Part shown: piece by piece, positions 1,350 through 63,465 of the stretch
Position numbering within the stretch: position 1 is the first letter of the stretch
How the letters are laid out: each line of letters starts with the position of its first letter
From: Nanobdellota archaeon
Lineage (GTDB): Archaea > Nanobdellota > Nanobdellia > Pacearchaeales > GW2011-AR1
Assembly (NCBI GenBank): GCA_021818475.1
Contig: JAKADZ010000002.1
Coordinates: 536-64,535, forward strand
Reading direction: 5' to 3'
Length of the DNA stretch: 64,000 bases
Translations under genes and position numbers: made by a program
The notes under the pieces: model-generated
Told to the model about the DNA's origin: nothing
Databases searched by the model: none
The model's input: the letters and a program-made list of their open reading frames with translations, nothing else

Positions 1350-2036
1350 ATGAAAAAGGTGATTGTTATGAGTCTTGGCGGAAGCCTGATAATTCCGGAC
1401 AATGTCAATGTTAAATTCCTGAAAAATTTCAGAAAAACTATTTTGAAGAATACAGATAAATACAAATTTATAATTGTGTGCGGGGGAGGGAATATTGCAA
1501 GAAAATATATTTCTGCACTTAAAGAAATAAATGCAGATGAAAATCTTCAGAGTTTCGCAGGAATTTCGGCTACGAGGATGAATGCAAGATTTATGTCTTA
1601 CTTTTTCAATCAGGATCAGGAAGTAGGGATACCTCACAAAATGAAAGAACTGAAAAAATATGTAAGGAAATATAATTTTGTTTTTTGCGGGGCGCTTGAA
1701 TATAAACCGCATCAGACTTCAGATTCCACTGCAGCAGAAATTGCAAAAGCATTCAGATGCAATTTTATAAATTTAACCGATGTTTCAGGACTGCATGATA
1801 AAAATCCCAAAGAATTCAAAGATGCAAAATTTATTCCAAAAATTTCATGGAAAGATTTTAACAAAATGGCGAATAAAATAAAATTCAAGCCAGGGCAGCA
1901 TTTTGTCCTCGATCAGCATGCATCTAAAATGATAATGGAAAACAAAATAACTACTTACATTCTAGGAAAAAATATGAACTATTTAGATAACCTCCTGAAA
2001 GGAAAAAAGTTCAAAGGAACAATTATTGCTGAATAG
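1350..2036 (+). CDS. pyrH: UMP kinase, archaeal type (amino-acid-kinase fold)
   Basis: VMSLGGSLI start and IIVCGGGNIARKYI glycine-rich motif; about 226 aa, as in archaeal PyrH. Confidence 0.7.
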   Translation: MKKVIVMSLGGSLIIPDNVNVKFLKNFRKTILKNTDKYKFIIVCGGGNIARKYISALKEINADENLQSFAGISATRMNARFMSYFFNQDQEVGIPHKMKELKKYVRKYNFVFCGALEYKPHQTSDSTAAEIAKAFRCNFINLTDVSGLHDKNPKEFKDAKFIPKISWKDFNKMANKIKFKPGQHFVLDQHASKMIMENKITTYILGKNMNYLDNLLKGKKFKGTIIAE

Positions 2037-2532
2037 GGCTTGTATTTGATACTGCTTGTTTAGGTTTATTCCTGTTTTTTATTAGGAGATAAACAATTAA
2101 TGCAATAACAATAAAAATAATTATTCCGATAATTATCTGAAATGTTGTGCTGACAAAAAAGACTTCTTTATTTGAAGCAGTCTGAGAGGGAGAAGAGAAG
2201 TTATTCTGCTGAGTGGAAATATTATTAGAAGGAGTGGGGGAAGAGAAGTTATTCTGTATTTCAGAAGACGGAATGTTTTCCTGAGTAGGCGGAACAGACT
2301 GATTAGAAATATTTGAAGGAGAATTTAATGGAGGTGAAGGAATTGTTGTTGTAGGGTTAGAACAATCCTGCGGACAGGTTGATGCAGTTTCCCCTGGCTC
2401 ACAAATACCGTCGCCGCACATATTTTGAGTAGTCTGATTAAATGAACCCGCATCAAGACTTGATACTAATGGAGTTATAATTAAGAATATTAAAATTATT
2501 AATTCAATTGGGATTATTTTTATTTTTTTCAT
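2023..2532 (-). CDS. secreted S/T/P-rich protein with C-terminal membrane anchor
   Basis: N-terminal signal peptide, CGDGICEPGETASTCPQDC motif, low-complexity PSPT region, terminal TM helix; its start overlaps the stop of the upstream pilin-like gene. Confidence 0.6.
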   Translation of the reverse strand: MKKIKIIPIELIILIFLIITPLVSSLDAGSFNQTTQNMCGDGICEPGETASTCPQDCSNPTTTIPSPPLNSPSNISNQSVPPTQENIPSSEIQNNFSSPTPSNNISTQQNNFSSPSQTASNKEVFFVSTTFQIIIGIIIFIVIALIVYLLIKNRNKPKQAVSNTSPIQQ

Positions 2533-3689
2533 CTTATATATAAAATAACATTTGCTCTTTCATCATAAGTTTGACATGCACAACAGTGAGATGAAGACGG
2601 ACCTGCTTCACACCAACTATACCAAGCCCCATAAGACCCGCATGATTCACCGTGGCCATAATAGTTCTGATTAGACCACCCCCCATCTGGAGAAGAACAT
2701 CCTGAAGAACCCGTTGTTAAAATAGACCCCCATCCATCATTATAATTATACTTAACATAAAAAGTTTTTCCTGCATTAACATTATCATTCCCCCACTGAT
2801 TTGGATCCGATAAAAGATTATAAATATAAACATCAACAGGGTTTAGAGAATTATACCTGTATTGCTGTGTCCAGTGTCCTCTTGTTATTTTATCTCCGGA
2901 ATTTAAAATTGATTTTATAATTGAATCAGATAATTTAACTGTCGTTGCAGAGTTTGGGTCCAATACCGTTCCCACAGCATTAACATTCCAGCAATTGGAA
3001 GATGGAACTGCACCATTAAAAGAAGGATAATTTGGATTGTTTTCGGGACGGCATACTGCAGCTAAAGTCCATCCGCCCCCATCAGTAGTCATATCACAAT
3101 AAACCTGCATCAGATTATTTCCGTCAGGATTAATCCAGTAAATACCGTCTCCGCGTGAAGCACTCAAAAAACTTTTACAGGAAGTTCCGGGACTTGATTG
3201 GCTGTTAAGAGCATCAGAATTAGCTTTATAAAGGTCATAAGAATCAACTACATTTCCTGTTGTCTCCTGACCGTTTGAGGTAGCAATAGGAGCAATTGAA
3301 ATAGTTTTTATTCCAAATGGACCAAGGTCAGAATAAGGGATTGTAAATGTCTGAGTTCCGAGTTCCTGCAGCGAGGAGGGTTCTTTTATTACCTTGGAAT
3401 TTGTCCCGTCAGAAACAATAAAATTAATTGAGGTTAAATCTCCCTGCCCGGAATTTCGTTGAACTGTAACAGCAACATCCCCGTTAGGTTCAAGATTAAC
3501 ATTCTGCAATTTAAGACTGATGAACATTTGCCCAAATGAAGAACTTGCCTGCTGAGTTCCTGATTTTAGAATATTTGAAACAACAACCCAGACAACTCCG
3601 ATAGCGACGAGAGAAAGAACAATTATTATCAATGTAACAACAATGTCAGAAAGACCTTTTTTATTTCTCAGTTCTCCCCTTTTTTTCAT
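2529..3689 (-). CDS. pilin-like (class III signal peptide) surface protein with fibrinogen-related-like C-terminal domain
   Basis: KKGLSDIVVTLIIIVLSLVAIGVVWVV prepilin-type N-terminus; GIYWINPDG...VYCDMTTDGGGWT matches the fibrinogen C-domain hallmark. Confidence 0.7.
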   Translation of the reverse strand: MKKRGELRNKKGLSDIVVTLIIIVLSLVAIGVVWVVVSNILKSGTQQASSSFGQMFISLKLQNVNLEPNGDVAVTVQRNSGQGDLTSINFIVSDGTNSKVIKEPSSLQELGTQTFTIPYSDLGPFGIKTISIAPIATSNGQETTGNVVDSYDLYKANSDALNSQSSPGTSCKSFLSASRGDGIYWINPDGNNLMQVYCDMTTDGGGWTLAAVCRPENNPNYPSFNGAVPSSNCWNVNAVGTVLDPNSATTVKLSDSIIKSILNSGDKITRGHWTQQYRYNSLNPVDVYIYNLLSDPNQWGNDNVNAGKTFYVKYNYNDGWGSILTTGSSGCSSPDGGWSNQNYYGHGESCGSYGAWYSWCEAGPSSSHCCACQTYDERANVILYIR

Positions 3690-3731
3690 TCTATCAGATA
3701 GTTTTTAATATTTAAAAATTCTATTATAAAA

Positions 3732-9114: not shown

Positions 9115-9639
9115 TTAAGAAATTATTGTTTGGTCTACAAATACTTTTGAATTTTCAAGAAATGATGCATTTTTTTCGTTTTTAACCGTGGTAAAAATTG
9201 CAGTAACATTTCTGCTTCTCAGGTTATTTATTATGTAATGTAAAAATTTAAGTACAGTGTCTTCAGGATGATAAATAAGCAAAGTTGAAAGTGAATCGAA
9301 GATTACACAGTCTATTTTATATTTCAGCAGTGCATTGCATATAACCAGACTCATTTGGGTTAGATTTTCTGCAGAAAAAACAAAACTCACCTGCTTCTCC
9401 TTTATAGAAACTGCTTCATTTGCACTCGAGACAGCATCTATAAAAAAAAATTTCTTCTTGTCAATTTTATTTTTTTCCATCCCTTTAATCAGCTGGAGAT
9501 AGCCTTTATTCAGGCTTACATAACCTATTCTGTTAAATTTTTTTGGCAGTTGTTTGACTAACTTAATCATAGAATCATTATATTTTTCACTTTCAAAAAT
9601 AACCAGTGCAATATCATTTTTATTAAATCCTTTTAACAT
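9115..9639 (-). CDS. KaiC/RecA-fold-like protein with no visible Walker A
   Basis: hhhhDSLSTLL Walker-B-like strand and KaiC-like layout, but no GxxGxGK[ST]; 1 nt downstream of the receiver gene. Confidence 0.5.
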   Translation of the reverse strand: MLKGFNKNDIALVIFESEKYNDSMIKLVKQLPKKFNRIGYVSLNKGYLQLIKGMEKNKIDKKKFFFIDAVSSANEAVSIKEKQVSFVFSAENLTQMSLVICNALLKYKIDCVIFDSLSTLLIYHPEDTVLKFLHYIINNLRSRNVTAIFTTVKNEKNASFLENSKVFVDQTIIS

Positions 9640-9640
9640 T

Positions 9641-10009
9641 TTATTTTAATATTTTTTTAATCCTCTTTTCAAAATCTTCCAGTTCTATCGGTTTAAGAAT
9701 GTAATCTGCAGGCTTTAATTTGTTCATCTCTTCTTTCCCGGATTCAACAACTTGTGCTACTGTAAGAAATACAATTTTTTGGTTTTTTGTTTTTGGATTT
9801 TTTCTTATTTCTTTTACACAATCTATTCCTGACATCCCGGGCATGAATATATCCATAATAACAAGGTCAAATTTTTCATTTTTAAGTAATCTTATTGCTT
9901 CTCTCCCGTCCCTTGCGAGAGCAGATTCAAAGCCCATTCTTTTTATTAAATAACTTATAGAATTACGAATATCTTCCTCATCATCAACAATCAGCACTCT
10001 TTTTTTCAT
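9641..10009 (-). CDS. single-domain response regulator (CheY-like receiver)
   Basis: VLIVDDEED, LVIMDIFMPGMSG (phospho-Asp) and ILKP conserved Lys. Confidence 0.85.
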   Translation of the reverse strand: MKKRVLIVDDEEDIRNSISYLIKRMGFESALARDGREAIRLLKNEKFDLVIMDIFMPGMSGIDCVKEIRKNPKTKNQKIVFLTVAQVVESGKEEMNKLKPADYILKPIELEDFEKRIKKILK

Positions 10010-10050
10010 TTCTGTTAATAGTTGGATTTTTTATAATTTAAATGTTGTGT

Positions 10051-12357
10051 TTATTGAATGGGAAGGGTAAAATAAAAAGTAGTATTTCCCTTAAATTTAC
10101 TCTCTGCCCAAATTTTTCCCCCATGCATCTCAATTATTGTTTTCGAAATATTCAGGCCTAATCCTGTCCCTTTCTTTTTTGTCTCAACTTCTCCAATCTG
10201 CGAAAAGGGTTTGAACAATTTTTCCATATCTTTCTTTTTAATTCCTATTCCATTGTCAGTTACCCGGACAAGAATATTTTTACCTTCTGCTTTTGTACTA
10301 ACTGTCACCCATGGATTATTTGAATTATTAAATTTGATGGCATTATCAATGAGATTGATTAAAACCTGATTAATTTTTTCTGCATCCATTTTTAATTTCG
10401 GCACTTTTCTCAAATTTAATTTTATGTCTACCTTATTTCCCTCCGCTAATGGCTTCATTACTTCGACGCTGTCCCGAATGATTTTATTAATATCTTCCTC
10501 CCGTTTAATTAAAGCCATATTCTGTTTCATCCTGCTCAGATTTAAAATTTGTTCAAGAAGTTGGTTTAATCTTTTTATATTTCTTGAAATAATCCCCAAA
10601 CTTTCCACTTGTCTTTGATTAAGTTTCCCGAGATCTCCCCGCTGAAGACTGTCTGCCTGTATTAAAATTGGAGTGATAGGGGTCTTAATCTCATGAGCAG
10701 TGAGATTTATGAAATCAGATTTCATTTTGTCGAGAGTCTCTAATTGCTTGTAAGAAAATTTAAGCTTCTTTACACTTTCTTCAAGTTCAGATTTGTTGTG
10801 CATTAATTCTTCAGTTCTTATTTTAACTTTTTCTTCTAGCTGCTCCTGATACATCTTCTTTTCGGTTATATCGTGGATTATTATCAAATCTGCATATTTT
10901 CCGCTGTAATTTATTTTTCTCGCATTTAATTCCGCAAATATTTTTTTATTCCCCCTGCCAACAAGGATAGTTTCATATTTTGACGGAACATTCTCTCCCC
11001 TCAATCTTTTTCTATAATTTAAAATTAATTCGGGAATTTTCTCTGGAGAGACAAACTGCATAAAAGATTTACCAATAATTTTTTTCAAATCTAACCCGCT
11101 CATTTTTTCAATTGCATGATTTGCATATTTGATTCTGGTATCCTGGACGATAATAATCCCGTCATTCGCTTTTTCTGAAACAGTCTTGTATTTTTCCTCA
11201 CTTTCTTTTAATTTGTCCTCTGCTCTTTTTCTTCTGTTTATATCTTCCGTATGAACCACAAAATATGCTACCTTTCCGTTTAGGTCTTTCACCACCGCGA
11301 TGCTTAATGCAACCCAGATTATTTCTCCATTTTTATGGATATATCTTTTTTCCAAATATCCATAATCTTTTTTTCCAGAAAGTAAATCCATTGTAAGATT
11401 TTTTGTCTTTTCAACATCCTCGGGATATGTTATCTGAAGGTATGCTTTTGTAAGCAGTTCTTCCTCAGAATACCCGGTAATCCTGCACAATGCTTTATTT
11501 ACCTGAAGCCATTTTCCATCAAGTGCAACCAAAGAAGTTCCTATACCGGAAAATTCGAAAATTTTTCTGAATCTCTCCTCGCTTTCTCTTAATCTGTCTT
11601 CTGTTTCTTTTCTTTTATTTATATTTTCAATGCGGAATAAAAAGTATTTGGGTTTATTATTCGAATCCTTTATCATTGCAATGTTTAGTGCAACCCATAT
11701 TACTCTTCTGTCCTTTGAAACAAATTTCTCTTCAAATGATTCATAATCTTCTTTCCCGGATAAAATTTTTAGAATTGCCTTTTTTGTTTGTTCAGTCTCT
11801 TCTGGAAAGATTAACTGATTGTATGTCTTTTTCAGAAGTTCTTTTTCTGAATATCCCATCATCCTGCACAGGGCTTTATTTACCTGCAAAAATTTTCCGT
11901 CCATTTTTACTATGGCAATTCCCAAAACTGAATGTTCGAAAATTTTTCTGAATCTCTCCTCGCTTTCTCTTAATTTTTCTTCTGCTTCTCTGTCTGCAGT
12001 GATATTTCTAATTCTGCACTGGACTAATTTTTTATAATCTACAGAGTAAACATTTCCTGTCAATTCTACTTCAATTTTCTCCCCGCTTTTTGTCTTTGCA
12101 GATAAACTTTTATAATGAACTTCTTTTTTGGCTTTTAGTTCTCTGAATATTTTTTCGCATCTTTCTTTTTCCCCAAAAAATTTTACATCCCACGGTTTTC
12201 TGCCAATCAAACCCTCCTTTTTATAACCTAAAATTTTAGTTACTGCAGGATTAACATTTTCTATCACACCGGTTTCATAATTTAATAAAAGAATTCCATC
12301 TTGAAAAGTTTCAAACAGTTTTTCAAATCTTAATTTATACTCCTCTTTTTCTTCCAC
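10051..12357 (-). CDS. cytoplasmic sensor histidine kinase with four PAS domains
   Basis: Four PAS-like repeats, H-box LTAHEIKTP, N-box NLIDNAIKF, G1 DNGIGI, G2 GTGLGL; no TM segment. Confidence 0.9.
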   Translation of the reverse strand: MEEKEEYKLRFEKLFETFQDGILLLNYETGVIENVNPAVTKILGYKKEGLIGRKPWDVKFFGEKERCEKIFRELKAKKEVHYKSLSAKTKSGEKIEVELTGNVYSVDYKKLVQCRIRNITADREAEEKLRESEERFRKIFEHSVLGIAIVKMDGKFLQVNKALCRMMGYSEKELLKKTYNQLIFPEETEQTKKAILKILSGKEDYESFEEKFVSKDRRVIWVALNIAMIKDSNNKPKYFLFRIENINKRKETEDRLRESEERFRKIFEFSGIGTSLVALDGKWLQVNKALCRITGYSEEELLTKAYLQITYPEDVEKTKNLTMDLLSGKKDYGYLEKRYIHKNGEIIWVALSIAVVKDLNGKVAYFVVHTEDINRRKRAEDKLKESEEKYKTVSEKANDGIIIVQDTRIKYANHAIEKMSGLDLKKIIGKSFMQFVSPEKIPELILNYRKRLRGENVPSKYETILVGRGNKKIFAELNARKINYSGKYADLIIIHDITEKKMYQEQLEEKVKIRTEELMHNKSELEESVKKLKFSYKQLETLDKMKSDFINLTAHEIKTPITPILIQADSLQRGDLGKLNQRQVESLGIISRNIKRLNQLLEQILNLSRMKQNMALIKREEDINKIIRDSVEVMKPLAEGNKVDIKLNLRKVPKLKMDAEKINQVLINLIDNAIKFNNSNNPWVTVSTKAEGKNILVRVTDNGIGIKKKDMEKLFKPFSQIGEVETKKKGTGLGLNISKTIIEMHGGKIWAESKFKGNTTFYFTLPIQ

Positions 12358-14465: not shown

Positions 14466-14582
14466 AGCCCCATAGTACAGCGGTCAAGTATATCGGCCTC
14501 TGGAGCTCACGAGAGAGTCGTTCACTCTCTCCGTATAGAACAGAGAGAGCCGGTGACCCAGGTTCGAATCCTGGTGGGGCTA
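14466..14582 (+). tRNA. tRNA-Gln(CUG) with 44-nt intron at 37/38
   Basis: AGCCCCA acceptor, D arm GTAC/GTAT, anticodon stem TCGGC/GCCGG, T arm CCAGG-TTCGAAT-CCTGG; intron 14504-14547. Confidence 0.75.
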
Positions 14583-26037: not shown

Positions 26038-26865
26038 TTATCTCGATTCTTCAACACTTCTTGCAGTTCTCATCGCTTCTTCAGCTTCAACCCTCGCAGC
26101 TTCAGCCTGAGCTCTTCTTATATCATTGCCTATTCTCCACATCCAATTTCTGAACTTACTGTTGAAAATAACAATTAATAACACCACCAAGAAAACTACA
26201 AGCATTATTATAATTGGTAAGGTTAATCCTAATTGAATCTGACCGCTAGCTAGTCCAGATATTAATTTGTAAATTAAGACTACAAGAAAAAACAACCACA
26301 AAAAGACTTCGAGCATAATTTTAGGAACACTCATTTGTCTGACTTTTTCATTGGATAAAAGCATTGCTGAAACAAACAGCATAATCATGAAAGGGATGAT
26401 AAAAGTAAGGGTAATTCCTAATGCGTCATAACTTGTTAAAATTGTAAAAACTTCAGAAGGAGTGATATATGCAGTAGCCAAAAAACTAACCGGAATTGCA
26501 ATTAAAGCTTGGAATACTCCTGAAGGAGGAAACTTAGCAAAACTTAATGCTCCCCAAATCAAACCGGTAAGCATAATCCAGAATAAATATTTAGCAATGT
26601 TAATATCTAGTTGTCCTGCACTCCATTGGGTAAATAAATCAGAAACAAAACTTGTTCCTGCACCCAGCGTCGGACTTGAAGAAGAACCAGAAAATGCATC
26701 AGCATTTCCCGAAATAACTTCACCGGTATGAGTAGCAAAACTTACTACAGTGATAAAAGCGATAACTGCAATTAATAAAAGAAGAGGAAAAAATTTACGA
26801 AGATAGGATGAAAAACTTTTTGATTTAACCGAATGAATCTGCCTCTTTTTACTTACTTTCTTCAT
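26038..26865 (-). CDS. polytopic membrane protein (275 aa)
   Basis: About 6 hydrophobic helices and a charged helical C-terminus. Confidence 0.5.
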   Translation of the reverse strand: MKKVSKKRQIHSVKSKSFSSYLRKFFPLLLLIAVIAFITVVSFATHTGEVISGNADAFSGSSSSPTLGAGTSFVSDLFTQWSAGQLDINIAKYLFWIMLTGLIWGALSFAKFPPSGVFQALIAIPVSFLATAYITPSEVFTILTSYDALGITLTFIIPFMIMLFVSAMLLSNEKVRQMSVPKIMLEVFLWLFFLVVLIYKLISGLASGQIQLGLTLPIIIMLVVFLVVLLIVIFNSKFRNWMWRIGNDIRRAQAEAARVEAEEAMRTARSVEESR

Positions 26866-48885: not shown

Positions 48886-50874
48886 TTATAATTTATTATG
48901 CACTAAAATATTATCTGCATAATAATAATGATAATTATCTATTTCCAGATTATAAGTAATTTGGGGGTCATAAACTTTTTTAATACTTGTAATGATAACC
49001 TTTTCTCCAGAAGAATTGATTAAATAATCACCAACTTTAGCATTTCCGATTTCAGTAAGATGACCATTAACAATTATTGGATGATTAGGAGTTACTTCCA
49101 AATATCCATTAATTAATAGATAGTAATTTCCCATTTCATAAGGATTATGTTCAAATGTCTTTGAAACCCTTGAAATTACTTGTTTCTTAGTTAATTCATT
49201 ATAACTTACAACTTTATCCCCTACTTTTACATCTTCAATATTTTTCAAACTGCCATCTGCCATTAATACTTTAGTTCCAGCTAAGAAACAAGCTTGCACT
49301 CCAACAACATAAGCTTGACTATATTGAATTCCCCCGTTTCCTTTCTTTCCAGTACCAACACTTACCGTAGGATCAGGTGTGGTTGGGGTAGTAGTAGCAG
49401 AAGAGATTAAATTGGATTCGTAACTAGTTGGAACAGTGATAGCTGGAAGGACAACCCCCCCTAATGAAGCACCAGCCTGACTATTTAAAGAAGCATATGT
49501 AGTTGCATCAACTGAAGTATATTGTATGGTTCCATCAGGATTAGTACCTGTTGCTACCAGATATAGAGGGGATGAAACTGTAGTAGGACTTGTAGTAGTC
49601 GTGGTAGTCGTGGTAGTCGTGGTAGTCGTAGTAGTTGATGGAGTGGTGGAAGTTGCTGGAGTTGATGAAATACCTGTAGAACCTGGTGCAGCATTACATC
49701 CTGGTCCAGAAGTACAACCTTGATTAACTATTGGAGTATAGACAGTAACTACTTGTGGCGGGGTGTAGGATGGAATAACCAAAGGAGTTAGGGCGATAGT
49801 TGGTGTAGCAGAAGGTAGAATAGGGTCAATTAAGCCGACAGAGGGTAATTCAGAAATTGGAGTCGGAATAAATCCTGGTGTAGGCTGACCCCCGTAAGGA
49901 TTTACATAACCATAACTAGGGGTAGTAGTACTAACAGCAGGAAGGATAGCTCCATGAGGGGAATTTGTTCCTCCAGTTTGTGAAGAAGAGGGATTGTAGC
50001 AACCAGCTCCCAAATAACATGCTTTAACTGTTCCGGGAGTTGGGTCTCCAAAAAAATTATTATTACATGGAGCAGAAGGAGAAGTAGCAACTATTGTATT
50101 AAAATTATTATTCGCGCCGTATGAAACAAACCATGTTCCTGAAGGAATATTACAGGTTCCCCCCTCATCTGCGCATTTTGTGCATCCTGAAACCTGAATA
50201 TCACAAGGTGAATGAGACACATTCGGAGCAAATGTTATAGCAGCAAGAAATTCTCCTGAACTCCCAAGAGGAATAAAATAATCATTGTTAGGGTTAGAAT
50301 TATGCAGTTGGTAACAAACAGAATTCATCATAATTTTATTAGAATAATCCTGTGGTTTGAGTTCATAACAAAGCCCTCGAATTCCTGCTTTTTGACATTG
50401 AGCTTCAGTTCTAAAACCAGAACCGTGAATTGGGAGATGCACATCAGAATTGGGAGTAACAACTATTGAAGAAGTTACATCATTAAAATTATTATTGACA
50501 AAACAATCATCATTGGAAGATAAAGTCAGGAGATTTCCCTGAAAATTATCATCCGAATATAACTCAACAGTATAACCTGAACTAACTTTAATTGAAGATA
50601 AATCATTATCTTTTATTCCCAAAGCCTGCAACTGACTGAGAGAATAAGCTCCCGGATATAATCCAACCGAATATCCCCCATAACTACAGTCCTGATAAAC
50701 TGTTACAGGAGCTAATATAGATGTAACTGAAGTTGTAGTAGTTGAAGTTGAAGTTGACTTATCAACATTAGACCCAGGAGTAACTCCAGCAGCAGGAGAT
50801 ATAGCCAAAGGAACTAAAAAAAATAAGAATACAAAGCTGATAACTAAAACAGGCAGTATTTTTTGATTGTTCAT
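48886..50874 (-). CDS. secreted protein: signal peptide, beta-gamma-crystallin-like domain, Cys-rich region, S/T/P linker with Thr15 run, C-terminal Hint (intein-like) domain
   Basis: Hint at 48889-49290: CFLAGTKVLMADG (block A), TPNHP (block B), terminal ILVHN followed only by KL. Crystallin-like region: YQDCSYGGYS...DLSSIKV...LYSDDNFQG...VTSSIVV. Confidence 0.75.
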   Translation of the reverse strand: MNNQKILPVLVISFVFLFFLVPLAISPAAGVTPGSNVDKSTSTSTTTTSVTSILAPVTVYQDCSYGGYSVGLYPGAYSLSQLQALGIKDNDLSSIKVSSGYTVELYSDDNFQGNLLTLSSNDDCFVNNNFNDVTSSIVVTPNSDVHLPIHGSGFRTEAQCQKAGIRGLCYELKPQDYSNKIMMNSVCYQLHNSNPNNDYFIPLGSSGEFLAAITFAPNVSHSPCDIQVSGCTKCADEGGTCNIPSGTWFVSYGANNNFNTIVATSPSAPCNNNFFGDPTPGTVKACYLGAGCYNPSSSQTGGTNSPHGAILPAVSTTTPSYGYVNPYGGQPTPGFIPTPISELPSVGLIDPILPSATPTIALTPLVIPSYTPPQVVTVYTPIVNQGCTSGPGCNAAPGSTGISSTPATSTTPSTTTTTTTTTTTTTTTSPTTVSSPLYLVATGTNPDGTIQYTSVDATTYASLNSQAGASLGGVVLPAITVPTSYESNLISSATTTPTTPDPTVSVGTGKKGNGGIQYSQAYVVGVQACFLAGTKVLMADGSLKNIEDVKVGDKVVSYNELTKKQVISRVSKTFEHNPYEMGNYYLLINGYLEVTPNHPIIVNGHLTEIGNAKVGDYLINSSGEKVIITSIKKVYDPQITYNLEIDNYHYYYADNILVHNKL

Positions 50875-50875
50875 T

Positions 50876-51565
50876 TTATCCGCATTTAACCTTTAAATCA
50901 TCAATTTCTTTTTGTTGCTCTTTTATAGCTTCAACCAAAACTCCGACGAGATTTCCATATTCAACAGATTTTAATCCGGTAACTTCATTGGTTGAAACTA
51001 ATTGAGGATAAACTTTTTCAACATCTTGAGCAATTAAACCCACATCTGCTCTTCCGTCGGATTTCCAGTTAAATGAAACTCCCTGAAGTTGCTCTACTTT
51101 AGATAATGCATCCTGAAGTTCACTGATGTTAGTTTTTAATGATCTGTCTGAAGTATAAAGAAAAGCAGTGCCTGATATGTAATTAGCAGAAAGATTTCCG
51201 CCTATTGCAACATTTCCATTTATACTGGTAAGCAAATTCTTGCTCCAGTCAGTAGGTGCAATCAAAAGTTGTGTTCCTGTTTTAGGTTCAATATAAATTT
51301 GACCAGTTGGATTGTATAAACCCCACATTTCTAATTTTGTCTGTCCATAAGTTGAAGAGGAACCTGGGCAGGTTGAAGCGTCACATGTAGAAAATAATTC
51401 CTGATTAACACCTGCACTAAAATCAATTTGAGCCGCAGAATGTCCCGGATTTGGAACAGCTGCATAAACTCCTGCTGCAACTAATGCAATAATTCCCAAA
51501 GTAATTAAAAAGTAAATAGCTTTATTAGACAAACTAGTCTTTTTTAACCCCTTTTTATTCACCAT
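50876..51565 (-). CDS. signal-anchored protein with C-terminal peptidase-S74 (intramolecular chaperone) domain
   Basis: YTSDRSLKTNI (Ser-Lys dyad context), GVSFNWK, VGLIAQDVEKVYPQLV, VEYGNLVGVLVEAIKEQQKEIDDL. Confidence 0.7.
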   Translation of the reverse strand: MVNKKGLKKTSLSNKAIYFLITLGIIALVAAGVYAAVPNPGHSAAQIDFSAGVNQELFSTCDASTCPGSSSTYGQTKLEMWGLYNPTGQIYIEPKTGTQLLIAPTDWSKNLLTSINGNVAIGGNLSANYISGTAFLYTSDRSLKTNISELQDALSKVEQLQGVSFNWKSDGRADVGLIAQDVEKVYPQLVSTNEVTGLKSVEYGNLVGVLVEAIKEQQKEIDDLKVKCG

Positions 51566-51616
51566 ATCGAATATAAGAATGAAGGGTTTTTAAATATTTT
51601 TATTATTTTAAGAAAA

Positions 51617-52147
51617 TTAATTGAATTCTGTTTTCTTTTTCAGTTTTCTGAGGAGAAAAATTAAAATTACAATTAATAACAATGGAAGGAAATAAAAAAT
51701 TTTTCCGTATGAAATTTCGTCTGTTGTTTTTCCTGTTAAAGATAAAAATTTTTCTCCGTTGACATTCAGTTCAATCCATGCTCCAATTCCATATGAAGAA
51801 TTATTTAATTTGTACATCAAAGCACCATAATAATTCCCGCTGTTTTTTGAAGAAATGCAGATGGGATAAGTTCCTGATTTTATTTCTGAAGGAATCTGCG
51901 GATAAATCCCAAGGCTGTCCGAGGAAATTTTATAATCAATCAAATTTTTGCTGTTTTCATTGCTCCATTTTATTTCCCCGTTGAAAATGCGGTAATCATC
52001 TCCCAAAAGGGTAAAATTCCTGCAGACGATTTCATTTGTTTTTTCAGAAATTTTTATTGTTCCTGGGGAAATACCAAGAGTTAATGCAGAAAAAAAGTGA
52101 AGGAAAAAAATTATTAAAATAAAAGCGAAGAAAAATATTTTTTTCAT
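51617..52147 (-). CDS. secreted protein with C-terminal TM anchor (176 aa)
   Basis: Signal peptide, beta-rich body, terminal hydrophobic helix plus KKK. Confidence 0.5.
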   Translation of the reverse strand: MKKIFFFAFILIIFFLHFFSALTLGISPGTIKISEKTNEIVCRNFTLLGDDYRIFNGEIKWSNENSKNLIDYKISSDSLGIYPQIPSEIKSGTYPICISSKNSGNYYGALMYKLNNSSYGIGAWIELNVNGEKFLSLTGKTTDEISYGKIFYFLPLLLIVILIFLLRKLKKKTEFN

Positions 52148-52185
52148 CTAATCAGTTTTTTGAATTAATATTTAAAAATTTAGAT

Positions 52186-52692
52186 TCATGCAGGCATGAC
52201 CCAGAGAATTAAGTTTGTTGAAAGGTTTAATCCACTGGTTATTGTATCAGGGTAATCCGTCAAATCAAGTTTAATGCAGGAATTATATTGATCACCATCT
52301 CCTCCCCTGTAAGTGGTTGGGGGATTTAAAGTCGAAGAAGTCAAATTATGACTGCGATAATAAGTAACATTATGCCAGGTAGAACAATCATCATCTGTAG
52401 CAAATTCGAGATAATCAAAGATTTTATCTGCATTTTCTTCTAAAATCGGGCTCAGTTTTAAGTCTAAATCCCCGACATTTTTAATAGTGATATTTTTTGA
52501 AATAGTTTCGTAACCTGCAGTTGTTTCCCCAAGATTAATATTATTCGGAAAAATTTCTATCATCGCAGTTGGCTGGGAAATATTAACTGAAACTGTTAAA
52601 CTTGAATTGGTATATGTATCAGCGCTTCCGGATGAGCAAAAGTAAGTCATAGAGAAGAGTAAGAAAAAAATCACAACCCCTTTTTTATTCAT
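52186..52692 (-). CDS. secreted protein (168 aa)
   Basis: Signal peptide; ITIKNVGDLDLKL beta-sandwich-like pattern. Confidence 0.5.
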   Translation of the reverse strand: MNKKGVVIFFLLFSMTYFCSSGSADTYTNSSLTVSVNISQPTAMIEIFPNNINLGETTAGYETISKNITIKNVGDLDLKLSPILEENADKIFDYLEFATDDDCSTWHNVTYYRSHNLTSSTLNPPTTYRGGDGDQYNSCIKLDLTDYPDTITSGLNLSTNLILWVMPA

Positions 52693-58157: not shown

Positions 58158-58275
58158 GAGGCTGTAGCTCAGCCAGGTTAGAGCACTGCTCTGATAGACT
58201 CAAACAAGTTTGGTTTGCCGAGTTCGTTTGACTTCAGCAAGGCAGGGGTCCACAGTTCAAATCTGTGCAGCCTCA
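58158..58275 (+). tRNA. tRNA-Ile(GAU) with 43-nt intron at 37/38
   Basis: GAGGCTG/CAGCCTC acceptor, anticodon stem CTGCT/GGCAG, loop CTGATAA, T arm CACAG-TTCAAAT-CTGTG; intron 58197-58239. Confidence 0.75.
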
Positions 58276-62358: not shown

Positions 62359-63465
62359 ATGAATAATAAAAAGAGGATAAACAAAAAAGGTTTGTCAGAT
62401 ATTGTCGTCACATTAATAATAATTGTTCTCTCTCTTGTTGCCATCGGCGTTGTTTGGGTTGTTGTTTCTAATATTTTGAAATCGGGAACCCAACAGGCAA
62501 GTTTTCAGTTCGGAACTTTATTTTTAGATTTAAAAATTGATAAGGTTTTAGTTGACTCAAGCGGGAATTATCAGGTGACAGTCTCAAGGGGCGCCGGGCA
62601 GGGAGAGTTGACAGGAGTAGATTTTGTTTTTTCCGACGGAACAAATAGCCAGGTAGTAAAAGAAAGCACTTCAATTCAGGAATTAGGAAGCCAGACATTT
62701 ACTTTCTCTCCTTCCGATTTAGGGCAGGTTTCAATTGTTAAAGAAATTGACATTGCTCCTGTTTTAAATTCCGGGGGAACAGACCAGATTGGCAGCAAAG
62801 TTGATTCAAAGATATTTTTAGCTAAAGACATAATTCAAAATCTTGGGGGAGTTTCATGGTGGAGATTGAATGGAGATGCAAGTGATGAATTTGGAAATAA
62901 TCCAGGAACAATAGTAGGAAGTTTAAGTTTTGTTCAGGGAAGAGCAGGACAGGCAGCAAGTTTTGACGGAACCTACAAATATATTCGTGCAAGTTCAGTT
63001 AACAATTTGCCTTTAGGAAATTCTCCCAGAACGATGTTGGTTTGGATTAAACCTGCAGGTTACCCGGACCCTTCTTATAATGGAATAATAGCTTATGGAA
63101 CAATGGGATGCTATGGGGAAGGTTCAATGTTGTCTATTCAAAATAGTGGCAGACTTTCAATGGCATTTTGGTGTAATGATGCGTACCAAGCAGGAACTCC
63201 TGCCAACATTAATCAATGGAATCAGGTTGCATTTACTTATGACGGAGGAACAACAGTCAAATTTTATATGAATGGGGCATTTGCAGACACAGAATCAATT
63301 AGTTATGGACAACCGGCAGCAACGCTAAACGGTCCGTTGAGAATAGGCTGCACAGATGACCCCGGAAGATGTTTCAATGGGCAGATAGAAGATGCAATGA
63401 TTTTCAACAGAGCATTAACTGCAGGTCAGATACAAGCATTGTATAATTTAGATTTAAGCCAATAA
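62359..63465 (+). CDS. pilin-like (class III signal peptide) surface protein with LamG/concanavalin-like lectin domain
   Basis: N-terminus identical to that of 2529-3689; WWRLNGDASDEFGNN...WNQVAFTYDGGTTVKFYMNG...FNGQIEDAMIFNRALTAGQIQALY. Confidence 0.75.
   Translation: MNNKKRINKKGLSDIVVTLIIIVLSLVAIGVVWVVVSNILKSGTQQASFQFGTLFLDLKIDKVLVDSSGNYQVTVSRGAGQGELTGVDFVFSDGTNSQVVKESTSIQELGSQTFTFSPSDLGQVSIVKEIDIAPVLNSGGTDQIGSKVDSKIFLAKDIIQNLGGVSWWRLNGDASDEFGNNPGTIVGSLSFVQGRAGQAASFDGTYKYIRASSVNNLPLGNSPRTMLVWIKPAGYPDPSYNGIIAYGTMGCYGEGSMLSIQNSGRLSMAFWCNDAYQAGTPANINQWNQVAFTYDGGTTVKFYMNGAFADTESISYGQPAATLNGPLRIGCTDDPGRCFNGQIEDAMIFNRALTAGQIQALYNLDLSQ

Follow-up and report, generated by a model that had tools for sequence, protein, structure and literature searches.

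A modular pilin-like protein and its membrane partner

Attachment to other cells is the presumed way of life of DPANN archaea, yet few of the molecules that make this contact have been identified. A locus found in a 64,000-nucleotide stretch of contig JAKADZ010000002.1 from a Nanobdellota archaeon (hereafter, the window) raises a related question: what is the role of a 386-aa protein that joins a pilin-like N-terminus to a domain carrying the YCDM..GGGWT string of animal fibrinogen-related domains (FReDs), and of the small membrane protein encoded directly after it? The gene for the 386-aa protein (2529–3689) and the partner gene, which encodes a 169-aa bitopic membrane protein (2023–2532), both lie on the minus strand, as do all features within them that are described below. 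All of the strings quoted from the pair in an earlier note on this DNA were recovered in an open reading frame (ORF) scan. The architecture of the 386-aa protein, which consists of a class III signal, an α1 helix, a β-sandwich, and a fibrinogen/intelectin-like head, is shown by the analysis, as are its homologies, the conservation of the gene pair, and the operons that surround its orthologues. With some reserve, we favor the reading that this DPANN (Woese-/Pacearchaeota-type) archaeon uses the protein as an adhesin built like a modular type IV pilin, together with a membrane partner specific to its head. The locus would thereby provide testable candidates for cell contact, namely a pilin with an exchangeable lectin-like head, a partner specific to that head, and a pilus operon in relatives.

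An N-terminal module related to archaeal type IV pilins

The 386-aa protein starts with MKKRGELRNKKGLSDIVVTLIIIVLSLVAIGVVWVV. Archaeal class III signals follow a FlaFind-type rule, [KR]G|hydrophobic, with an H-domain after the cleavage site, as outlined in PMC4371748. The window protein agrees with this rule. A 12-residue leader, MKKRGELRNKKG (residues 1–12; 3654–3689), precedes LSDIVVTLIIIVLSLVAIGVVWVV, and K11-G12|L13-S14 is followed by the H-domain DIVVTLIIIVLSLVAIGVVWVVV. Neither G12 nor S14 varies in alignment A4, and the predicted prepilin-peptidase site is located after G12 (KKG|LSD). The H-domain and α1 helix (residues 13–52; 3534–3653) would pack in the filament core. In the full-length AlphaFold2 (AF2) model, with a pLDDT of 81.7, the helix spans residues 15–52 and is followed by β strands at residues 59–152 with a pLDDT of about 85–96, which belong to the β-sandwich pilin globular domain (residues 53–157; 3219–3533).

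Profile comparisons were in line with this architecture. The family profile matched the type IV pilus subunit of Pyrobaculum calidifontis (8fk7_A) with E = 1.1e-7 when built from alignment A1 and 9.7e-4 when built from alignment A4. In addition, the pilin module aligned with a 192-aa pilin encoded in the filament operon of a related contig, L090 (hhalign, 97.3%, E = 2e-11), over 96 columns that extend into the β domain. Sequence comparison thus places the N-terminal module among homologues of archaeal type IV pilins, and both the archaeal prepilin-type N-terminus and the β-rich middle domain described in the earlier note were borne out.

A head with a predicted fibrinogen-like/intelectin-like fold

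The C-terminal head comprises residues 158–386 (229 aa, 10 Cys; 2532–3218), of which residues 168–212 of the protein read GTSCKSFLSASRGDGIYWINPDGNNLMQVYCDMTTDGGGWTLAAV. It contains an ∼40-aa "GGGWT unit" (residues 170–209; 3063–3182), SC..GDGIY..VYCDMTTDGGGWTL, which can be written as SC-x9-GDGIYWINPDGNNLMQVYCDMTTDGGGWTL and is equivalent to FReD subdomain A. The NCBIfam model NF040941 (GGGWT_bact) matched residues 177–209 at model positions 10–45 with 57.5 bits (cut-off 30, E = 1e-15), and Pfam PF00147 (Fibrinogen_C) reached 26.4 bits, above its gathering score of 22 (E = 7.4e-6). At the sequence level, the motif match is far beyond chance. When solved structures were searched with the single sequence, the best matches were serum lectin, XEEL, intelectin-1, and FIBCD1 over residues ∼170–218, and the 66-sequence family profile (A1) matched XEEL, intelectin, and FIBCD1 at 3e-14 to 4e-12. 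Among the 66 sequences, C198 and G206 are invariant and S170-C171 is nearly so. The head-only alignment A3 has 35 invariant columns, which include 10 Cys positions (C171 and C198 among them) and the motifs GWSN and CE..PS.SH.C.

The sequence similarity is confined to the start of the head. The Fibrinogen_C match is limited to residues 178–209, which align with profile positions 13–45 of 221 (33/221). Longer A1 alignments to solved structures gain no score beyond the motif, and the second-domain alignments to intelectins score only 1 to 2 bits. The region that provides the intelectin Ca2+ ligands is unaligned, as the alignments with 4wmo, 4wmq, and 7e1e stop at profile positions 61–78. With the head-only profile A3, the region alignable to solved FReDs starts at position ∼5 and ends at ∼55–80. 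Residues 201–386 alone gave no Pfam match at E < 10, and the last ∼150 residues of the head have no detectable sequence relative in the PDB or Pfam.

FReDs consist of subdomains A, B, and P, and both Ca2+ and the ligand pocket are located in P. Given this location of the pocket, the YCDM..GGGWT string is a structural hallmark of the A-subdomain and not the glycan-binding site. The earlier note had treated the string as the core of a glycan-binding domain; the relation to FReDs stands, but the string marks subdomain A and the similarity stops after ∼50–70 residues. The same note had proposed a Fibrinogen_C profile search and had named, as grounds for dropping the idea, a similarity confined to the short motif with a different fold or the lack of a significant profile match. 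The outcome lies between the two, since a match above the gathering score exists but does not extend outside the region of the motif.

The predicted fold gives a loose match over a longer stretch. The AF2 model of the head alone has a pTM of 0.85. A Foldseek search of the PDB with this model returned 138 matches at E < 1e-3, all of which are FReD or intelectin structures, with ∼250 aligned columns, and the full-length model returned 94 matches at the same threshold, again all FReD or intelectin. The highest query-normalized TM score (TMq) among the PDB matches belongs to intelectin-1. Thus, the structural comparison suggested in the earlier note retrieves only FReD and intelectin structures, but with TM scores below 0.5. 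In a viral structure library, the nearest entries were cyanophage "fibrinogen C-terminal domain" or tail-fiber-like proteins (TMq 0.45–0.53, E about 4e-6). Our reading of these models is that the head would be a divergent member of the fibrinogen-like/intelectin superfamily with a Cys-rich distal part of its own. It shares subdomain A, with the Cys pair C171/C198, and probably also the core sheet with this superfamily.

Glycan binding by the head, and thus lectin activity, is plausible by analogy. An alternative that cuts across the other readings, and which we regard as doubtful but worth attention, is that the head is not a lectin and instead mediates protein-protein contact or oligomerization, with either a protein or the 4-Cys mini-domain of the partner as its target. 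Angiopoietin FReDs bind Tie2, the holes of fibrinogen bind knobs, and the collagen C-propeptide drives trimerization. Consistent with such a role, the top PDB fold matches of the head include the protein- or peptide-binding angiopoietins and fibrinogen, Pfam COLFI gives weak matches in the 386-aa protein and its relatives, the carbohydrate/Ca2+ site of FReDs is unrecognizable, and co-occurrence of the partner is specific to the fibrinogen-like head. However, the best sequence matches (XEEL, intelectin-1, serum lectin, and FIBCD1) are lectins, the sister head found on the same pilin module is of the Concanavalin A (ConA)/Laminin G (LamG) lectin type, and the domain also occurs at the tip of phage tail-fiber-like proteins, which commonly bind glycans.

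A membrane partner that tracks the head

The partner starts with a hydrophobic signal, followed by CGDGICEPGETASTCPQDC (CGDGICEPGE...CPQDC), and its layout consists of the signal, a 4-Cys mini-domain, a S/T/P/N-rich linker with 7 N-x-S/T sequons, a transmembrane helix, and a basic tail. The C-G-D-x2-C-x3-E-x4-C-P-x-D-C motif of the mini-domain (partner residues 39–57; 2362–2418) is invariant in alignment A2 at C39, G40, D41, C44, E48, C53, P54, D56, and C57. The same alignment contains a linker of low complexity that varies in sequence, an invariant FF pair (residues 125–126), the C-terminal transmembrane anchor that follows it (residues ∼131–151; 2080–2142), and the basic tail. All of the features that had been listed for this protein, i.e., a secreted, S/T/P-rich protein with a CGDGICEPGE motif and a membrane anchor, are present.

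The partner family consists of 24 proteins of 100 to 280 aa, and the contigs that encode them coincide with those of FReD-headed pilins. In 7 of 8 FReD-headed contexts the partner adjoins the head gene on its downstream side, with a 4-nt overlap in four of them. In the window, the start of the partner gene overlaps the stop of the pilin gene by 4 nt (ATGA), as had been noted. The pair is therefore conserved in relatives, overlapping, and probably co-translated, which agrees with the two-gene surface operon that had been proposed. Two of the seven partner-bearing contexts have the other pilin module, and the partner is absent after both of the LamG-headed pilins examined, which indicates that the partner tracks the head and not the pilin module. 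It could aid assembly, serve as a dock in the membrane, or be a ligand that is glycosylated.

Attempts to assign the partner to a Pfam or NCBIfam family yielded only sub-threshold compositional matches (RIFIN, podoplanin, and TMEM154), and these were rejected. Most partner homologues (L083, L084, L090, and L092) have a Ca2+-loop-like motif, D-[FIL]-[DN]-G-D-G-[VI]-D-D-G-E-Q, immediately before the Cys motif, and in three of them the signal h-region ends with a Cys. The window partner (LDAGSFNQTTQN) has neither the Ca2+-loop-like motif nor the h-region Cys.

Upstream of the pair, a TATA-box-like TTTAAATA (3709–3716, minus strand) was read from the sequence ∼23 nt before the pilin-gene ATG. It lies in a 42-nt divergent intergenic region common to the pilin gene and the RNase P p30 gene, and its position suggests that the pilin-gene mRNA would be leaderless or have a very short leader.

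Exchangeable heads on a shared pilin module

The window encodes a second protein of the same design, a 368-aa paralogue (62359–63465, plus strand) that combines the pilin module with a ConA-like/LamG head (Laminin_G_3, PF13385, E = 4e-25). Its gene is located directly after MetRS genes and is not accompanied by a partner gene. The paralogue is 63% identical to the 386-aa protein over residues 1–150, and a 41-aa run that spans the cleavage site and the α1 helix is identical in both proteins. Recent gene conversion between the two was considered and rejected, since 18 of its 41 codons differ synonymously, which points to purifying selection on the run. An identical run would be expected if both subunits fit the same filament core or machinery.

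A homology search recovered 273 homologues of the 386-aa protein, among which the pilin N-module carries FReD-like, LamG, or other heads. Conversely, the same head is found on a different pilin module in P0019 and P0022, so that the head occurs with two kinds of pilin module. Judged from its sequence, the 386-aa protein is thus a modular pilin, in that it has a class III pilin moiety and an exchangeable C-terminal domain. Word depth in a mine-drainage assembly was uniform at ∼37x but rose to ∼280x over the part of the gene that encodes α1 (3471–3637) and to ∼75x over both the YCDM-GGGWT motif (2970–3136) and the C-terminal Cys cluster (2469–2635), and contigs break at these peaks. The depth peaks and contig breaks indicate that many related pilin or head genes are present in the same community.

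Type IV filament operons in relatives

In two Pacearchaeota-type contigs, an orthologous pair is part of a complete type IV filament operon that is encoded on one strand (L090, 4397–11302; L091, 4406–11305). These operons contain five genes with class III signals, one of which carries the fibrinogen-like head with a partner homologue directly downstream, a T2SSE ATPase (E = 1.9e-34, with a PilB3-like C-terminus), a small coiled-coil gene, and a T2SSF platform protein. The head in these operons is ∼60% identical to the window head and is carried on a different pilin module, and small head-less pilins are part of both operons as well. The orthologue in an Aenigmatarchaeota genome has a T2SSE gene at a distance of ∼4 kb. 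A P-type cation ATPase is encoded upstream of the L090 and L091 operons. Within the window, a 275-aa protein with about six transmembrane helices (26038–26865, minus strand) gave no Pfam match at E < 0.01, and its candidacy as a prepilin peptidase was not confirmed.

These operons bear on an unlikely, although serious, alternative in which the class III signal and the α1 helix act only as an anchor, so that the head is displayed singly or on a short pseudopilus, in the manner of the bindosome, with the partner as a co-anchor. The β-sandwich would then raise the binding head over the membrane or S-layer, and a long adhesive pilus would play no part. Several observations are compatible with such a display. 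No assembly machinery was recognized in the window, where the pair is found among housekeeping genes; NCBIfam revealed a weak likeness of the 386-aa protein to UpsA and BasC (E 0.1–1); and the partner, too, is a surface protein with a membrane anchor. Moreover, class III signals are described for archaeal proteins that bind substrates (PMC3047682 and PMC4371748). On the other hand, the orthologous heads and their partners are located inside full type IV filament operons with several small pilins, and the pilin module is homologous to the filament subunit 8fk7 and, beyond the helix, to the operon pilin. Distance from the machinery is also seen for the adhesion pilins of Haloferax volcanii, which are likewise encoded apart from it (PMC4371748).

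An alternative that places the protein in a filament, but which we consider rather improbable, is that both head-bearing paralogues are major pilins that polymerize along the whole filament and coat it with fibrinogen-like and LamG heads. The identical H-domain under purifying selection resembles that of H. volcanii PilA1-6, each of which is able to serve as the major pilin (PMC4371748). Furthermore, the globular domain of archaeal type IV pilins faces outward, such that an extra C-terminal domain might be tolerable in an 8fk7-type architecture, and the very high community depth of the α1 segment suggests that many such pilins exist. However, the 229-aa head would be bulky on an ∼105-aa pilin domain, bacterial modular pilins of such a design are described as minor, tip-located subunits (PMC9934059), and the small head-less pilins of L090 and L091 are better candidates for the shaft.

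Our favored reading, a modular pilin-like adhesin, leads to the following proposal, in which we infer cleavage, incorporation into a filament, position in that filament, and the ligand. The prepilin would be cut after G12 by a class III signal peptidase, which removes the 12-residue leader, and the hydrophobic α1 helix would anchor the protein in the membrane. A type IV filament machine, comprising an ATPase and a platform protein encoded outside the window, would then build the protein into a pilus, with the helix in the filament core and the β-sandwich presenting the disulfide-rich head on the outside, most likely as a tip or minor subunit. The head would bind a surface ligand, be it on a different cell or on a substrate, and a glycan is plausible for this ligand by analogy. 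Since the LamG/ConA-headed pilin has an identical α1 helix, the same filament could display alternative heads. The co-translated partner, membrane-anchored and probably glycosylated, may serve the fibrinogen-like head in its assembly, docking, or presentation.

Several findings weigh against this proposal. In the 386-aa protein, Pfam PF07790 (Pilin_N) has no match at E < 10, and its matches in 4 of 15 relatives are all sub-threshold (best E 0.051). The 8fk7 match lies partly within the hydrophobic helix, which inflates its score. None of T2SSE, T2SSF, or the A24 peptidase was found in Pfam scans of 20 neighboring, secreted, or polytopic window proteins, and many archaeal proteins with class III signals are not filament subunits, e.g., the sugar-binding proteins of the bindosome (PMC3047682). 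With regard to the head, the fold match is loose (TMq 0.40–0.48, rmsd 8–10 Å), and neither the signatures of FReD subdomains B and P nor the Ca2+/ligand-pocket residues are detectable past ∼70 residues. Lastly, the partner is absent beside the Aenigmatarchaeota orthologue, and the locus is absent from three small metatranscriptomes of the same study, which are kept as contigs only and are uninformative. Taken together, the link to a pilus that had been suggested for this locus is strengthened by the orthologous pairs inside T2SSE/T2SSF operons, whereas the glycan binding that had been suggested with it is an analogy.

Distribution and origin of the head domain

The earlier note had considered the YCDM..GGGWT domain unexpected in an archaeon and had raised the possibility of a horizontal origin. 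To survey its distribution, one genome per prokaryotic species was scanned for YCDM[TS][TS][DN][GD]G, which provides lower bounds. At least 548 loci were confirmed, many of them in DPANN. Among the matches listed, bacterial loci were found in Myxococcota, Planctomycetota, Patescibacteria, Auribacterota, Pseudoalteromonas, and Geomonas, and archaeal loci in DPANN lineages, Thermoplasmatota, and Methanosarcinales. The match in a cultured Geomonas (L032) falls within no intact ORF of 120 aa or more, and this locus was set aside. The NCBI name "fibrinogen-like YCDxxxxGGGW domain-containing protein" is already used for relatives from Pace-, Diaphero-, and Aenigmatarchaeota and from Patescibacteria.

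An exhaustive hidden Markov model search with the head profile over 1.84 billion representatives (E ≤ 1e-3, clusters at 50% identity) yielded 12,334 clusters. Among the best 150 of these, about 30 have the complete 222-position head, including the bacterial P0083 and P0126. Most of the top matches are giant proteins with 3 to 15 copies of only the first ∼50 positions. In these proteins, which are 1,000 to 8,000 aa long (e.g., P0121–P0125), the ∼50-aa SC..YCDM..GGGWT unit is arranged in tandem or dispersed copies, and in P0122, from the amoebozoan Phalansterium solitarium, it occurs together with EGF and Sushi domains. Its repetition in giant proteins suggests that the unit behaves as an independent mini-domain and not only as the start of a FReD. 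A deltaproteobacterial tail-fiber-like protein (L028) has a head-type domain at its end. The fibrinogen-like A-subdomain unit can thus be viewed as a widely used fiber-tip module in bacteria, archaea, phages, and protists, which corrects the notion of the motif as an animal signature.

The genomic setting of the locus is archaeal. The window encodes archaeal MCM and RNase P p30 and has two tRNA genes with introns (14466–14582 and 58158–58275, both plus strand, 117–118 nt), which Rfam detects and ARAGORN misses; these features together identify the window as archaeal. The best relatives of the locus are found in metagenome-assembled genomes of Woese-, Pace-, and Nanoarchaeota, and the locus is present in mine-drainage metagenomes. 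Relatives at 57%, 44% (two cases), and 39% identity have the same succession of genes, namely RNase P p30, pilin, partner, and amino acid kinase. The G+C content at third codon positions (GC3) of the pilin gene is 0.25–0.27, which fits a genome of ∼33% G+C. Gene order kept down to 39% identity and host-like GC3 argue against a recent transfer.

A recent horizontal acquisition of an animal FReD by the archaeon was therefore rejected and is, in our judgment, hardly credible. In its favor, the YCDM..GGGWT string is best known from animal FReDs and Fibrinogen_C matches above threshold. Against it are the breadth of the domain across many bacterial and archaeal phyla, its occurrence in phages and an amoebozoan, the conserved synteny beside housekeeping genes, the GC3 of the gene, and the fact that the likeness to animal proteins covers only ∼50–70 residues. 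Across kingdoms, no more than ∼50 residues of the domain can be aligned. The head domain is neither unexpected in an archaeon, given the number of prokaryotic loci, a dedicated NCBIfam model, and archaeal proteins that already carry an NCBI name, nor a recent import from animals.

Relation to known systems

The closest parallel is provided by the modular pilins of Streptococcus sanguinis, PilB (vWA head) and PilC (ConA-like head), which likewise have a class III signal, a short pilin moiety, and a C-terminal binding module (PMC9934059 and PMC8179133). The ConA-like lectin module of PilC binds glycans and is part of a tip complex that is stabilized by PilA (PMC9934059). Both systems have several modular pilins with different heads and a dedicated small partner (PilA for PilC), and the role in adhesion at the tip that is described for S. 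sanguinis is the one proposed for the window protein. The window protein differs in that it is archaeal, has a KG|L signal, and has a β-sandwich where the bacterial pilin is an α-β roll. Its head is fibrinogen/intelectin-like, and its partner is not a pilin but a bitopic protein that has a Sec-type signal and is anchored at its C-terminus. If our reading is correct, the "modular pilin" idea would be extended from Gram-positive bacteria to archaea.

Paralogous class III proteins with near-identical H-domains, encoded away from the assembly genes and involved in adhesion or surface binding, are also known from archaea. They include H. volcanii PilA1-6, adhesion pilins that share a conserved H-domain and are encoded apart from the machinery (PMC4371748), and the bindosome and Ups proteins of Sulfolobus (PMC3047682). 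In contrast to the window protein, the pilins of these systems are not known to have a large lectin-like head, and bindosome proteins are ABC-transporter solute receptors.

With respect to the head, the 386-aa protein is by score a member of NF040941 (GGGWT_bact). This model covers 46 residues with no stated function, its annotation includes neither the pilin fusion nor the partner gene, and the complete head of 222 positions forms a far smaller family. Animal FReDs (ficolins, FIBCD1, tachylectin 5A, tenascins, and angiopoietins) have subdomain A, the Cys pair, and the YCDM..GGGWT strand in common with the window head, but the TM scores are 0.40–0.46 and the window head has 10 Cys and its own motifs GWSN and CE..PS.SH.C. 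Intelectins and X-type lectins (human ITLN1 and Xenopus XEEL) have the best sequence E-values (1.2e-11 to 3e-14) and TM scores of 0.46–0.48, and their alignment extends furthest past GGGWTL (…LAAVCRPENN…C W vs …LVASVHENN…DRW). Even so, the overall identity is 14 to 17% and the region that binds Ca2+ and exocyclic diols is unaligned. In cyanophage proteins (P-SSM4, S-ShM2, and S-CAM8), a head-type domain is located at the distal end of the fiber, where by analogy it may act as a receptor-binding tip; these domains are carried on a phage fiber and not on a pilin, and are 13 to 17% identical to the window head.

The domain name and the modular-pilin concept are already known. In the open-access literature, we found no described archaeal or DPANN fibrinogen-like modular pilin or partner. 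The surface proteins of a patescibacterial epibiont include fibrinogen C and ConA domains (PMC13059738), and a 2026 preprint on archaeal type IV filament systems mentions adhesin-like and galactose-binding proteins with class III signals but not the family in the window. A more far-reaching idea, which we regard as speculative and improbable, is that the pair is a recognition cassette for contact between DPANN cells and a host or kin, in which a lectin head has the sequon-rich, mucin-like partner as its cognate ligand or dock and the LamG heads provide alternative specificities. As a corollary, the FReD/intelectin fold would have begun as a prokaryotic or phage fiber-tip adhesin.

Other loci in the window

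Two additional gene groups were observed. Beside the MCM gene, four genes for secreted or membrane proteins are located at 48886–52692 (minus strand). They encode a 662-aa protein that has a pretoxin-HINT/Hint domain at its C-terminus and gives weak β/γ-crystallin matches, a 229-aa protein with a Peptidase_S74 (endosialidase/tail-fiber intramolecular chaperone) domain and an N-terminal KKGL..transmembrane segment, and two signal-peptide proteins that belong to no family. This cluster may represent another surface or contact-dependent system. At 9115–12357 (minus strand), a signaling trio consists of a KaiC-like/DUF7504 protein (174 aa), a response regulator (122 aa), and a 768-aa histidine kinase with four PAS domains, which is an unusual sensory investment for a small-genome DPANN archaeon.

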